From Flavobacterium sp. (GTDB lineage: Bacteria > Bacteroidota > Bacteroidia > Flavobacteriales > Flavobacteriaceae), in assembly GCF_046155325.1 (NCBI RefSeq), contig NZ_JBJXDQ010000003.1, positions 4,804-68,803 on the forward strand: 64,000 nt of DNA. Reading direction: 5' to 3'. Below the pieces are notes generated by a model. It was not told the DNA's origin. It saw only the letters and a list, made by a program, of their open reading frames with translations, and did no database searches. The stretch's first letter is position 1. Every line of letters begins with the position of its first letter. Made by a program: the position numbers and the translations under genes. Below are positions 151 through 7,734 of the stretch, one piece after another.

Positions 151-717
151 ATGGACATCAACCCAGAAATCCAAAACGCATTTGAAATAATTCAACAAGG
201 CGGCATTATCCTCTACCCGACTGATACCGTTTGGGGAATAGGCTGCGATGCCACAAATCCTGAGGCTGTTGCCAAAATCTATACGCTCAAACAACGAGCC
301 GAAACCCAAAGTATGATAGTTCTGATGAATGGCGAAAAAATGATGTACAACGTTTTCAAAGAAATTCCAGAAGTGGCTTGGCAAATTATCGATTTATCCG
401 AGAAACCAACGACATTAATTCTTGATAAACCCCGAAATGTGGCTGCCAACTTAATTGCTTCCGATAATACTCTAGGAATTAGAATCGTCAAAGAACCCTT
501 TTGCTTTAAATTGATGGAGAAAATGAAAAAACCACTGGTTTCGACTTCTGCAAATATCTCTGGTCAGCCTACTCCTATTGCTTTTAAAGATATTAATCCC
601 GAAATTATAAAAGGTGTGGACTATGTTGTAAATTTGCACCGTGATAAAATTGGAGGAAAACCGTCTACGATTATAAAAATAACGAACGATTCTCAGGTAA
701 AAGTGATTCGGAAGTAA
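151..717 (+). CDS. tsaC: L-threonylcarbamoyladenylate synthase, short YrdC-domain-only form
   Basis: YPTDTVWGIGCDA, KxR and STSANISG motifs of the Sua5/YrdC family; 188 aa, no C-terminal SUA5 domain. Confidence 0.9.
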   Translation: MDINPEIQNAFEIIQQGGIILYPTDTVWGIGCDATNPEAVAKIYTLKQRAETQSMIVLMNGEKMMYNVFKEIPEVAWQIIDLSEKPTTLILDKPRNVAANLIASDNTLGIRIVKEPFCFKLMEKMKKPLVSTSANISGQPTPIAFKDINPEIIKGVDYVVNLHRDKIGGKPSTIIKITNDSQVKVIRK

Positions 718-725
718 AAAAGATA

Positions 726-789
726 GCCACGAATTCACAAATTTTATTCAAAACAAATTGAAATAAATTCGTGAATTCGTGGCAAAAAA
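726..789. repeat. Palindromic element upstream of GxxExxY gene
   Basis: gccacgaattcac (726-738) is the exact reverse complement of gtgaattcgtggc (771-783). Confidence 0.9.
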
Positions 790-800
790 GATACGAAAAA

Positions 801-1175
801 ATGGCAGAAATACTATACAAAGAAGAAAGCTATCAAATAATGGGAATTTTATTTGAAGTTCACAGCAATTTAGGTGGTGGCTTTTCAGAAATTGTATACA
901 AAGATGCTATAGAATATGAGTTTAAAAATTTGAATATTCCTTACGAAAGAGAAAAGGAATATTCTGTAAATTATAAAAACATTATTTTAAACCATAAGTT
1001 TTATGCCGATTTTGTTTTGTTTGATTCTATAATTTTAGAAATAAAATCAAGCGAAAACCTTCACCCAAAACATTATTCACAATGTTTAAACTATTTAAAA
1101 GTTTCAAACAACAGGTTGGCTATTTTAGCCAATTTTAATTCTATATCTTTAGAGCATAAACGCATAATTAGATAA
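801..1175 (+). CDS. GxxExxY family protein (PD-(D/E)XK nuclease-like)
   Basis: GFSEIVY motif; ADF..EIK nuclease-like motif; ATG at 801 preferred because the GTG at 771 lies inside the repeat. Confidence 0.9.
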   Translation: MAEILYKEESYQIMGILFEVHSNLGGGFSEIVYKDAIEYEFKNLNIPYEREKEYSVNYKNIILNHKFYADFVLFDSIILEIKSSENLHPKHYSQCLNYLKVSNNRLAILANFNSISLEHKRIIR

Positions 1176-1178
1176 ATA

Positions 1179-1203
1179 AAATTCGTGAATTCGTGGCAAA
1201 AAA
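1179..1203. repeat. 25-nt direct repeat of the GxxExxY upstream arm
   Basis: aaattcgtgaattcgtggcaaaaaa identical at 765-789 and 1179-1203. Confidence 0.9.
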
Positions 1204-1204
1204 A

Positions 1205-2626
1205 ATGAACTACAAAGAATCCTTAAATAATAAAATCTTCGAAGTAATATCTCAAGCTTCCCAAGAACTTAACATCGATAGTTATGTGATTGGTGGTTTT
1301 GTTCGGGATTATTTATTAGAACGAGATTTCAAAAAAGACATTGATATTGTTGCCGTGGGCAGCGGAATAGAACTCGCTTTGAAAGTTTCGGAATTGCTTC
1401 CCAAAAAACCAAATGTTCAGGTTTTTAAAACCTACGGAACCGCCATGTTGCGTTTTGAAGATACCGAAATCGAGTTTGTTGGTGCTAGAAAAGAGTCCTA
1501 TCAGTTTGATAGTAGAAATCCATTAGTTGAAAATGGAACCCTTGAAGATGATCAAAATCGTCGGGATTTTACCATTAATGCTTTGGCAATTTCTTTAAAA
1601 AAAGAAACTTATGGAGAATTATCGGATCCTTTTAACGGATTAGAAGATTTGAAAAATAAAATTATCAGAACGCCACTTGACCCAGATATTACTTTTTCTG
1701 ATGATCCTTTGCGAATGTTGAGAGGCATTCGATTTGCCAATCAATTGGGATTTCGAATTGAAGAAAGTTCTTTGCAATCCATCACAAAAAATGCTGAAAG
1801 AATCAAAATAATTTCAGGCGAAAGAATTGTGGATGAGTTAAATAAAATACTTTCGACCGACAAACCTTCAATTGGCTTTTTGCTATTGTATAAAACGGGA
1901 CTTTTAGATATTATTCTTCCTGAATTAACGGCATTGAATCAAGTGGAGGAAATCGAAGGTCAAACACATAAAAATAATTTTTATCACACTTTAGAAGTCG
2001 TTGATAACATTTGCCCTAATACAGATGATGTTTGGTTACGCTGGTCTGCATTATTACACGACATTGGCAAAGCACCTACAAAACGCTTCAACAAAAAACA
2101 AGGTTGGACATTTCACGGGCATGAATTTCTAGGTGGAAAAATGGCAAAGAAAATATTCGAAAGATTGCATATGCCTCTGAATCACAAAATGAAATTTGTA
2201 CAAAAAATGGTCATGATGAGTTCAAGACCCATAGTACTTTCGCAAGATTTAGTTACCGATTCTGCTGTGCGCCGTTTGGTTTTTGATGCAGGAGAGGATG
2301 TCGAAAGTTTGATGACTTTATGCGAAGCTGATATAACAACTAAAAACCCAACTAAATTCAAGAAATACCATCAAAATTTTGAGATAGTTCGAAAGAAAAT
2401 AGTCGAAGTGGAAGAACGAGATCATGTTCGTAATTTCCAACCTCCAATTACCGGAGAAGAAATTATGGCTATTTTTGATTTAAAGCCCTCTCGTGAAATA
2501 GGAATTCTTAAAGAAGCTATAAAAGAGGCTATTTTAGAGGGTGAAATACCCAACGAATATCAGGCAGCTTATGATTTTGTTTTGGTAAAGGCCGAAAAAA
2601 TAGGTTTGAAAAGAGTAACAAATTAG
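1205..2626 (+). CDS. cca: CCA tRNA nucleotidyltransferase with HD domain
   Basis: GGFVRD, DIDI, RRDFTINA, DDPLRMLRGIRF and LLHDIGK motifs; ATG at 1205 (the GTG at 1193 is inside the repeat). Confidence 0.9.
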   Translation: MNYKESLNNKIFEVISQASQELNIDSYVIGGFVRDYLLERDFKKDIDIVAVGSGIELALKVSELLPKKPNVQVFKTYGTAMLRFEDTEIEFVGARKESYQFDSRNPLVENGTLEDDQNRRDFTINALAISLKKETYGELSDPFNGLEDLKNKIIRTPLDPDITFSDDPLRMLRGIRFANQLGFRIEESSLQSITKNAERIKIISGERIVDELNKILSTDKPSIGFLLLYKTGLLDIILPELTALNQVEEIEGQTHKNNFYHTLEVVDNICPNTDDVWLRWSALLHDIGKAPTKRFNKKQGWTFHGHEFLGGKMAKKIFERLHMPLNHKMKFVQKMVMMSSRPIVLSQDLVTDSAVRRLVFDAGEDVESLMTLCEADITTKNPTKFKKYHQNFEIVRKKIVEVEERDHVRNFQPPITGEEIMAIFDLKPSREIGILKEAIKEAILEGEIPNEYQAAYDFVLVKAEKIGLKRVTN

Positions 2627-6004: not shown

Positions 6005-6038
6005 GGGTTTAAAGGTTTAAGGTGGTTTAAAAGTTTAA
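6005..6038. repeat. GTTTAA-type periodic repeat, left arm of four-helix-bundle cassette
   Basis: ggtttaaa ggtttaa ggt ggtttaaa agtttaa. Confidence 0.85.
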
Positions 6039-6048
6039 TATCGTTTAT

Positions 6049-6458
6049 ATGGCTACAATAACAAAATTCGAAGATTTAGAAATTTGGGAAGAGGTAAGAA
6101 GACTTTCAAAAGAAATAATTTTCATATCTAAAAACACTGAACTAAATAAATATTTTAAATTTAATGCTCAAATTAAAGACTCGTCAGGATCTGTAATGGA
6201 TAACATCGCTGAAGGGTTTGAAAGGAATGGAAACGCTGAAATCCGCCAATTTCTATCCATAGCTAAAGGCTCAGCTGGAGAAACCCGTTCTCAATTATAT
6301 AGAGTTTTCGACAATGAATATATTGATGAAGAAAAATTAAAATATTTAGTTACTGTGTATGAAAATTGAGTATTAAAATTCACAATTTCATCACTTACCT
6401 AAACAAAAAAGACTTCAGAGGTACAAAATTTATAGACCCACAAACCCCAAACTCTTAA
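6049..6458 (+). pseudogene. Four-helix-bundle (23S rRNA IVS/Avd-like) protein, frameshifted near 6365
   Basis: KFEDLEIW..R, QIKDSSGSVMDNIAEGFER, FLSIAKGSAGETRSQL; TGA at 6367, but the shifted frame continues LSIKIHNFITYLNKKDFRGTKF to TAA at 6456-6458. Confidence 0.8.
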
Positions 6459-6513
6459 ACAAACTTAAACTTTTAAACAATTTTAAACGAAATTAAATAA
6501 TCTTAAACCTTTA
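6455..6513. repeat. TTAAAC-type periodic repeat, right arm (inverted relative to 6005-6038)
   Basis: ttaaacttttaaac 6465-6478 is the reverse complement of 6025-6038; ttaaaccttta 6503-6513 is the reverse complement of 6010-6020. Confidence 0.85.
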
Positions 6514-7572
6514 ATGATAAACCTTTTCAACGCCCATATCGATACTTTATCCATTCATAGAGTAGGAAACAAAAGTCGCAACGAAGCACTTTTTTTATCG
6601 GAACAATCTTTTAATTTGAATGACGAAATCGTTCCGTTAATGAAAGAGTATTTCCTCAAACCTTTTAGAGAAAAGGAAGAAAACTATTTTCAATTTGCAC
6701 ATGAAGTTGATTTAGAATACAATGACATGTACACATTAGCTTCGCAACTATTTGAAAACCCAAGTTGTTTACACGAAGTTTCTAAAAAAATCACAACTCA
6801 TTTATTCGAACAATCCAATCATCCACACATCAAAAATGGCGAGGTTTATATTGCCTATTTGACTAACATGAATATCGACAATACCATAGTTGATGCTATT
6901 GGGATTTTTAAAAGTGAGATTCAAACCGACTTTCTGCAATTTGAAGAAAAAGAATCTAACCTTGAAATGATACTTCAACAAGGTATTAATCTTAGCAAAT
7001 TAGACAAAGGCTGCTTGATTTTTAATTACAAAAAAGAGGAAGGTTATAAAATATTAACTGTTGACAGTAATCGTTATGATGCAAGGTATTGGTTAGAACA
7101 TTTCTTATCGGTTGATGCTTTTGAAGACGAAAATTTTATCACTAAAAAATATCTTAAATTCTGTCAAGGCTTTGCCAAAGATGTTGTTTTTCCTGCCGAA
7201 GACAAGAAAGAAGAAGTAATGTTTATGAATCGTAGTGTAAATTATTTTGCAAAAAATGACCAGTTTGAAGAAAGTAATTTCTTGAATGAAGTTTTAGATA
7301 ATCCCGATTTAATTCCGGAATTTAAAAATTACAAAGTAGACAAAGGCGAGAAATACAGTATTGAAGATGTGACTACATTCCCAATTGCTAATGCAGCTGT
7401 TTCTGATGCCAGAAAGTCAATCAAAAACGTTATTAATTTAGATACCCATATTCAAATCAAGTTAGATTTTATTAACCCAGAAAGCGCCGAAAAATTTGTT
7501 GAAAAGGGTTGGGACGAAGAAAAACAAATGTATTACTACTTAGTCTATTTTAATAAAGAAGTAAAAAACTAG
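6514..7572 (+). CDS. Nucleoid-associated protein (YejK/NdpA-like, 37 kDa family)
   Basis: LSIHRVGNK start, DAIGIFKSE, LDKGCLIFN, YWLEHFL. Confidence 0.8.
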   Translation: MINLFNAHIDTLSIHRVGNKSRNEALFLSEQSFNLNDEIVPLMKEYFLKPFREKEENYFQFAHEVDLEYNDMYTLASQLFENPSCLHEVSKKITTHLFEQSNHPHIKNGEVYIAYLTNMNIDNTIVDAIGIFKSEIQTDFLQFEEKESNLEMILQQGINLSKLDKGCLIFNYKKEEGYKILTVDSNRYDARYWLEHFLSVDAFEDENFITKKYLKFCQGFAKDVVFPAEDKKEEVMFMNRSVNYFAKNDQFEESNFLNEVLDNPDLIPEFKNYKVDKGEKYSIEDVTTFPIANAAVSDARKSIKNVINLDTHIQIKLDFINPESAEKFVEKGWDEEKQMYYYLVYFNKEVKN

Positions 7573-7682: not shown

Positions 7683-7734
7683 GCGACAGATTCACAGATT
7701 TTAAAAAATCTATTTTAATCTGTGAATCTGTGAC
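7683..7734. repeat. Gene-less palindromic element related to the GxxExxY flank
   Basis: acagattcacagatt (7686-7700) pairs with aatctgtgaatctgt (7717-7731). Confidence 0.85.

Follow-up and report, generated by a model that had tools for sequence, protein, structure and literature searches.

Small nuclease-type genes lying between inverted palindromic repeats are known from the REP/REPIN sequences and their RAYT genes (REPtrons; PMC3116915, PMC3733652, PMC3333891), in which the flanking repeat is also dispersed without a gene in the intergenic DNA of the same genome and the gene for the most part stays at one site over long periods. A second system comprises the Ssn nucleases and their NTS/SRM repeats (PMC11893778), where genome-dispersed, hairpin-forming inverted repeats of 20-50 nt stand on either side of a small gene for a single-domain nuclease, many protein/repeat pairs of differing sequence exist, and the idea of a domesticated element has been raised. 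The present analysis deals with a locus of similar layout in a 64,000-nt stretch of DNA from Flavobacterium sp. (GCF_046155325.1, contig NZ_JBJXDQ010000003.1, positions 4,804-68,803, forward strand), here called the window, in which a gene of the GxxExxY/PDDEXK_3 family and its inverted arms occupy the spacer between tsaC and cca. Free-standing homing endonuclease genes, which follow a cycle of gain, decay and loss at a fixed slot and are sporadically distributed, are not known to be framed by inverted arms or to have a gene-less repeat population.

Sequence comparisons with relatives led us to consider it established that the gene and its arms form one evolutionary unit, hereafter termed the cassette, that this unit was inserted into tsaC-cca, and that it has been exchanged between species at this one slot; exchange between genera, into the same slot, is very probable. 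The reading that we favour, with a probability of roughly 0.4, is that the putative nuclease has the arms around its own gene as substrate, and that repair by cutting and copying would maintain arms and hairpins and drive slot-specific replacement. The cassette has the features of REP/RAYT named above in common with that system, but RAYT is an HUH Y1 tyrosine transposase whereas the cassette protein is a PD-(D/E)XK (Cas4/RecB-like) hydrolase, the arms are tandem octamers starting with GCCAC in place of the GTAG- or CGTC-tagged REPs, and cassettes, unlike REP/RAYT, occur as several paralogues per genome, each with a unit of its own, and undergo lateral replacement at the same slot. The likeness to Ssn/NTS likewise has its limits, since Ssn has a GIY-YIG fold with demonstrated cleavage of single-stranded DNA beside NTS, whereas the cassette protein has a predicted fold of another kind and a putative activity, and NTS repeats do not form the tandem-unit arrays seen in the cassette arms. 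With homing endonuclease genes the cassette shares the fixed slot between conserved genes, the sporadic distribution, the pseudogenised or truncated copies, the conflict between gene tree and flanks and the occurrence in the same slot in different genera; it differs from them in its inverted arms, its gene-less repeat population and the absence of visibly co-converted flanks.

Members of other families of the order have tsaC and cca end to end or overlapping, at distances of -2 to 32 nt, and lack a hairpin there. Within Flavobacterium, an orthologous GxxExxY gene was found in the spacer of 8 of the 18 species with adjacent tsaC-cca, the proteins being 63-72% identical to that of the source genome and the arms being of the CACGAATT, CACAGATT or CGCAAATT type, while the remaining species have spacers of 17-146 nt, most of which contain other kinds of gene-less repeats. 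On the cca tree, species with and without the gene in the slot are intermingled. An earlier interpretation of this DNA made from its letters, the sequence-only reading, had proposed a self-contained cassette inserted between the two genes, and the tight junction elsewhere together with the patchy occupation bears this out; comparison of the junctions of relatives, which it had recommended, shows that the gene is not fixed in the genus. Decay is also seen, as one slot orthologue (L026) is truncated at its N-terminus and two of the six GxxExxY copies of the source genome are damaged (pseudogenes). By eye, no consistent flanking or target-site duplication was found at seven orthologous loci and seven solo hairpins. 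A miniature inverted-repeat transposable element or insertion sequence was rejected, since inverted ends are present but neither a target-site duplication of fixed length nor a transposase domain, and a pair of AAAAAAGATA copies that might have passed for such a duplication is confined to this window and no general feature.

The gene-less spacers of L009, L011, L013 and L024 consist of (TCAGTTT)n, followed by AGCAAC or TGCAAAC and then (CTTTAAG)n, the two arrays not being complementary to each other; the same element is present in the source genome at C97:799-1156 and fills slots that hold GxxExxY cassettes elsewhere. The tsaC-cca spacer of L020 contains a long hairpin, TTTGTCATTTCGACGAAGGAGAAATCGCAT...ATGTGATTTCTCCTTCGTCGAAATGACAAA, whose motif is common in Bacteroidota genomes.

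The copies in the tsaC-cca slot form one clade among the paralogues, and the tree within this clade conflicts with that of the flanks. In the cassette tree, L012, L015 and L025, all of which have CGCAAATT arms, group together (support 99/98), whereas the tsaC+cca tree places L012 with the source genome (L008) and L010, and L025 with L023. Approximately unbiased (AU) tests rejected the cassette grouping on the flank data (p 1e-39, nine taxa) and the flank grouping on the cassette data (p 0.002). Among L012, L015 and L025 the gene shows 82-85% DNA identity and both arms are 100% identical; outside the arms, identity amounts to 74-80% overall and 60-90% per 50-nt window, which is the flank level. 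For other pairs the gene is usually less conserved than the flanks (69-75% vs 74-87%). Moreover, the cassette of L075, a metagenome contig (1150-1620), is chimeric, with a left arm of the CGCAAATT type and the first ~45 codons of the L012 type, the remainder of the gene and the right arm being of the source type (CACGAATT).

Outside the genus, Hyunsoonleella ulvae and H. pacifica, two sister species that are the only carriers among the 18 of their genus, have a cassette with source-type arms in the tsaC-cca slot. Its gene is 72-73% identical to that of the source, and in the flanks the identity is 42-45% for TsaC and 72-73% for the full-length CCA enzyme; the corresponding values for the same slot in Mesoflavibacter are 73% for the GxxExxY gene (gxx), 58% for tsaC and 73% for cca. 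The Hyunsoonleella copies nest among those of Flavobacterium, although the AU test speaks only weakly against Flavobacterium monophyly (p 0.028). An ancient presence of the cassette in the slot followed by many losses is a less simple reading than transfer into the slot. The conflict between cassette and flank trees, along with the use of the same slot across genera, shows movement between species and not within a strain.

These data bear on the idea of a classical free-standing homing endonuclease, which would cut the conserved empty tsaC-cca junction and be copied by double-strand-break repair, with the arms as incidental companions. Such an enzyme would account for one protein lineage per site, the patchy distribution, the decay states, the incongruent tree and the finding that three genera use the same slot. 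We nevertheless regard it as clearly unlikely, because the empty junctions share no evident conserved target, because identity drops right outside the arms of L012, L015 and L025 with no sign of flank co-conversion, and because the arms, which are the most conserved part, would have no role and the gene-less hairpins elsewhere would have no explanation.

The gene between the arms matched TIGR04256 (GxxExxY; 1.2e-36, 125.6 bits with a cut-off of 35, model positions 2-116 of 116) and, over the full length, PF13366 (PDDEXK_3; 2.8e-33, 115.2 bits with a cut-off of 22). These were its only matches in Pfam and NCBIfam, and no GIY-YIG, HUH Y1 or other transposase domain was detected. In alignments of 19 and of 92 relatives, no variation is seen at G25, G27, E30, Y33, D70, E80 and K82, and little or none at Q94 and Y98; these residues comprise the GxxExxY motif (G27, E30 and Y33) together with the E/D/ExK core and the QxxxY motif known from RecB-type nucleases. 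The AD..EIK motif to which the sequence-only reading had drawn attention corresponds to D70, E80 and K82 and is thus kept throughout the family alignment. No meaningful PDB match was obtained by sequence, either with the protein as query or with the 19-sequence profile. As a single-sequence AlphaFold2 prediction gave a predicted local distance difference test score (pLDDT) of 37.7, the 92-sequence alignment was used instead and yielded a model with a pLDDT of 94.4. The best PDB neighbour of this model in a Foldseek search was Cas4 SSO0001 (4ic1; E 2.6e-5, TM 0.61), followed by the LHK-Exo (alkaline) exonuclease, lambda exonuclease, MGME1 and RecE. A Cas4/lambda-exonuclease-like core fold with an intact catalytic site is predicted. 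The protein would share this core and the E / D / ExK / QxxxY set with Cas4, but it has a single Cys and so no four-cysteine Fe-S module, it comprises ~124 instead of ~200 amino acids, and its gene has tsaC and cca as neighbours and no CRISPR-cas neighbourhood.

In comparison with two strains, the gene showed 16 synonymous and no non-synonymous differences, and pN/pS was 0.04-0.16 against more distant alleles (overall range 0-0.16); it is under strong purifying selection. The allele occurs in the samples SRR28962023, ERZ27280268 and ERZ27247900. We consider it established that the gene encodes a functional Cas4/RecB-like nuclease. Genes of this kind are present in F. johnsoniae as well. The family is large, with more than 8,000 clusters matched in one search, and its function was listed as unknown in a survey of the superfamily from 2012 (PMC3424549). 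In the literature on GxxExxY, PDDEXK_3 and Flavobacterium palindromes we found no account that ties the GxxExxY family to repeats.

The association of gene and arms was evaluated at 43 Flavobacterium loci, consisting of 30 loci from 60 other species, the six copies of the source genome and seven orthologous tsaC-cca loci. Flanking inverted repeats with a score of at least 14 were present at 37 of them (86%), compared with 0.8% of 1,500 random windows of the source genome and 0.2% of shuffles, so that other GxxExxY genes are framed as well, a point on which the sequence-only reading had staked its proposal. Inverted repeats lie near all six paralogues of the source genome, and their sequences differ. 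The arms are composed of two to four tandem units of 7-9 nt that are variants of C-R-C-R-R-A plus a short tail, the unit types being CACGAATT, CGCAAATT, CACAGATT, CGCAAAG, CACAAAG and CACAGAG. The unit class follows the protein clade, with one exception: clade A (...EIVYKDA...) goes with ...ATT units and clade B (...LGPGLLESAY...) with ...AAG/GAG units. Protein clades also match genomic sites almost one-to-one, the 43 loci including flank-gene clusters of 8, 7, 4, 4, 4, 2 and 2.

The main rival explanation holds that the hairpins are independent repeats of certain intergenic slots, kept by replication slippage or another enzyme, or because they serve the host, for instance in insulation or mRNA stability, and that the gene is a small host or defence cargo with an unrelated substrate, which does not act on the arms and is framed and shuffled since hairpins are hot spots of recombination and insertion. 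Several observations fit this explanation. Unrelated gene-less families are found in the same slots elsewhere (TCAGTTT arrays, GATTTGAA and GTCAATT units and a GTCATTTCGACGAAGGAGAAATC hairpin), and the source genome has gene-less arrays at C97:799-1156 and C113:15242-15349 in slots that are occupied elsewhere. A gene for a four-helix-bundle protein in the window is framed likewise by other units. Additionally, one slot was used by both clades: the source genome has there a clade A cassette with CACGAATTT-type (CACGAAT-type) arms (C98:2383-3006, L003), and in four other species (L042, L053, L057 and L064) clade B cassettes are present instead, their arms being of the CACAAAG/CACAGAG types. Pointing the same way, the source genome has hairpin types, described below, that lack a cognate cassette. 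Left unexplained, however, are the framing of one gene family at 86% of its loci vs 0.8% of random windows, the correspondence of unit class and protein clade, the 100% identical arms around a gene that has diverged by 15-18%, and the near-absence of arms from genomes that lack the family, and we judge this explanation somewhat unlikely.

The doubled octamer pattern CRCRRATTCRCRRATT had 39 matches in the source genome, whereas the reversed pattern, used as control, had none. Most of these arms form gene-less hairpins with loops of 10-23 nt at about 25 loci, of the types CACAGATT, CACGAATT and CGCAAATT. A gene-less hairpin of like design, with another unit than the arms of the cassette, lies within the window at 7683-7734 and consists of GCGACAGATTCACAGATT, a 16-nt loop and AATCTGTGAATCTGTGAC, followed by an A-run. 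Across 61 Flavobacterium species the number of arms varied between 0 and 75 and was correlated with the GxxExxY gene count (Spearman 0.50, p 5e-5), the median being 0 in the eleven genomes without a GxxExxY gene and 6 in the rest.

Several points weigh against an action of the nuclease on its own arms. The correlation between arm and gene numbers takes no account of phylogeny and genome size, two genomes without any GxxExxY gene have 7-8 arms, and CGCAAATT and CACAGATT hairpins are present in the source genome without a cassette that carries exactly those arms. No lineage was found in two different slots among the 43 loci, so that transposition to new sites was not seen; this pattern of one lineage per slot weighs against frequent transposition, and the cassettes appear to be long-term residents of their slots, with vertical residence explaining much of the pattern. 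Within the genus, the exchange may amount to homologous replacement of the ordinary kind, and saturation under constraint may account for part of the ~73% identity of gxx to other genera. A lone PD-(D/E)XK nuclease cannot carry out strand transfer, so that host recombination would have to do the moving, and the lack of a consistent target-site duplication mentioned above belongs to the same list.

The arrangement of the locus, in which tsaC, an intergenic block, the GxxExxY gene and cca follow each other on the forward strand, is given in Table 1. Exact-sequence look-ups of two proteins, TsaC among them, gave no match.

Table 1. Features of the tsaC-cca locus, numbered from the first nucleotide of the window.
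Feature	Position	Strand	Evidence or remark
tsaC, TsaC/YrdC-type L-threonylcarbamoyladenylate synthase	151-717	+	TIGR00057 2e-43, PF01300 3e-46
AAAAAAGATA	716-725		exact second copy at 784-793; the pair brackets the 58-nt hairpin directly
Left arm L, GCC + CACGAATT + CACAAATT + TTATT	726-748	+	inverted-repeat search
Extra right arm R1, closing a complete 58-nt hairpin with L (726-783)	758-783	+	inverted-repeat search, folding
Direct repeat, copy 1 (R1 and A-rich tail)	765-792	+	27/28 identical to 1179-1206
GxxExxY/PDDEXK_3 gene, 124 aa, predicted minimal Cas4/RecB-like nuclease	801-1175	+	profiles, alignment, predicted structure
Right arm R2	1175-1197	+	22/23 positions complementary to L; inverted-repeat search
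Direct repeat, copy 2 (R2 and A-rich tail, reaching into the cca ATG)	1179-1206	+	27/28 identical to 765-792
In-frame GTG inside R2	1193-1195	+	ORF (open reading frame) 1193-2626; gene calls begin there
cca, CCA-adding tRNA nucleotidyltransferase	1205-2626	+	TIGR02692 1.4e-99; PolyA_pol and HD domains

Each cassette arm at this locus is made up of two tandem octamers (CACGAATT) with GCC...GGC caps, and eight further loci in the genome have the arm type of L. The 13-mer core GCCACGAATTCAC occurs three times in the window, compared with 0.03 expected, and three occurrences were reached in none of 100 shuffles. In the sequence-only reading the arm at 726-738 could pair either with 771-783 or with 1185-1197; both pairings hold, and the arms are longer than 13 nt, since L matches R1 over 26 nt (726-751 vs 758-783, 88%) and R2 over 23 nt (726-748 vs 1175-1197, 96%). 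The 25-nt direct repeat that it had noted (765-789 and 1179-1203) is exact and forms part of the longer repeat in Table 1. As single-stranded DNA, the hairpin 726-783 has a folding energy of -19.8 kcal/mol (z = -8.6). R2 is followed by AAAAAAAATG. Bacteroidota genes have an A-rich leader before the start codon, and the A-run after each right arm is more simply understood as the leader of the downstream gene. The ATG of cca (1205) reads ACA or ACT in the related strains L039, L040, L073 and L075; as it is lost there, the GTG within R2 must be the start of cca, and by this reading of the frames the right arm must now belong to the start region of an essential gene in these strains. The last, conserved codons of tsaC together with the spacer (703-725, GTGATTCGGAAGTAAAAAAGATA) show 74% identity to the right arm with its tail (771-793, GTGAATTCGTGGCAAAAAAGATA), which may be due to chance or may be a clue to the choice of the slot.

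The extra right arm R1 is confined to the lineage with at least 86% protein identity to the source (L038-L040, L071, L076 and L079, with a degenerate form in L073), and most cassettes in the tsaC-cca slot have the plain order L-gene-R. Since R1 is limited to one lineage, yet is kept in it up to a synonymous divergence (dS) of 0.7, it arose by an old duplication, which took in the right arm and its A-rich tail, and is no recent scar of insertion; that R1 and R2 are nearly identical reflects how well arms are conserved in general and not recency. The duplication turned the left arm into a complete hairpin. In the sequence-only reading, recombination between the two direct repeats was thought to excise the cassette and to restore a simple hairpin before cca. 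Regular excision of this kind, as circle or deletion, is highly improbable in the light of the comparisons, although near-identical repeats of 25-28 nt do exist. R1 is missing from most cassettes in the slot, so that no general mechanism could depend on it, and the order L-R1-gene-R2 is retained in every member of the lineage over its whole divergence. Moreover, a search of two sequence collections for the right arm followed by the cca start returned eight further loci, all of them occupied and two of them being those of H. ulvae and H. pacifica, and no recombined allele, and the empty slots of the closest species contain TCAGTTT/CTTTAAG arrays or other hairpins, but no L-R hairpin of this type. 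One locus could be a relic of such a loss, namely L095 from Hyunsoonleella, where a gene-less, decayed hairpin with the right arm CTGTGAATTCGTGGC and an A-run lies directly before cca; this hairpin is either a relic of loss or a precursor.

The hairpin region is subject to rearrangement in the lineage with R1. L071:629-1185 contains three tandem copies of a 198-nt unit that runs from the final 65 nt of tsaC through the hairpin into the first ~52 nt of gxx, and in L076:560-1239 (Flavobacterium sp. NG2, CP139420.1) a different segment of 380 nt, centred on the hairpin, is present twice. The two tandem duplications are independent, and the instability is centred on the hairpin. In L071, an arm of another unit type is also found on the loop sequence of the usual arm, which suggests that arms are converted in place.

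An RNA-based function of the arms has to be considered as well, in which they would pair in the tsaC-gxx-cca transcript, the stem being processed as by RNase III on 23S rRNA intervening sequences, or a switch between L:R1 and L:R2 controlling the translation of gxx and cca. The three co-stranded genes with their short spacers, the overlap of R2 with the start region of cca, for which it supplies the start codon in some strains, and the high stability of the L:R1 stem are in line with this view. However, the 174 mismatched arm positions at the 37 framed loci comprised 31 G.T and 39 A.C pairs on the gene strand (p 0.40), so that wobble pairs are favoured on neither strand. The predicted fold of the full transcript pairs L with R1 and leaves R2 free, and R1 is missing from most loci in the genus. 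In a scan of positions 500-1500 against Rfam, with E-values of 10 or less admitted, the sole matches were microRNA look-alikes below threshold, located on the hairpin, and no U-run follows the stems. An RNA device is therefore very unlikely, and the loop-out of the whole gene from the RNA that the sequence-only reading had envisaged was not upheld. With no tolerance of wobble pairs, a fold restricted to L:R1 and no Rfam match, the complementarity of the arms looks like a property of the DNA, or like one that arises by copying. A canonical terminator was rejected too, because on either strand the stems are preceded by T-runs and followed by A-runs, an arrangement that only makes the palindrome longer.

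The four-helix-bundle "23S rRNA intervening sequence" proteins have in common with the cassette that a small gene lies in the loop of a long inverted repeat, but their fold is unrelated and without nuclease motifs, and in the classical case the element is situated inside rRNA and removed by RNase III. An ORF of this type with 106 aa is present in the window at 6049-6369, between nested arms of GTTTAA-type units (6009-6514) that match at 82% (6015-6047/6456-6488) and at 86% (6009-6030/6493-6514). This unit lies between the stop codon of one gene and the ATG of the next, and it represents a second gene family framed in this manner.

In the favoured mechanism, the nuclease would recognise the octamer arms in DNA, be it as fold-back, as single strand or as long palindrome. 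Cleavage at the arms, followed by repair templated by another copy, would preserve both the uniformity of the arms and the gene-less hairpins, and with incoming foreign DNA a cassette could overwrite a hairpin or a cassette in the homologous slot. The result would be a partnership like those of REP/RAYT and NTS/Ssn, combined with a cycle of gain, decay, loss and regain like that of homing endonuclease genes. A bolder version, which we hold to be rather unlikely, regards GxxExxY cassettes as an undescribed minimal form of selfish DNA, in which a 124-aa Cas4-like nuclease with a paralogue-specific octamer code would cut hairpin slots, host repair would copy the cassette into homologous slots across strains, species and genera, and the gene-less hairpins of phased units that fill the intergenic DNA of Bacteroidota would be left behind.

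The tsaC-cca slot displays all states side by side, namely the tight junction, the gene-less hairpin, cassettes with arms of three types, a chimeric cassette, a truncated gene and tandem duplications, along with lateral replacement between species. Should the protein recognise its own tandem-octamer arms, the cassette would join RAYT/REP and Ssn/NTS as a third nuclease-repeat partnership of independent evolutionary origin. Many intergenic hairpins of Flavobacteria would then be explained, and the family would provide a source of small nucleases with varied and apparently modular sequence specificity.

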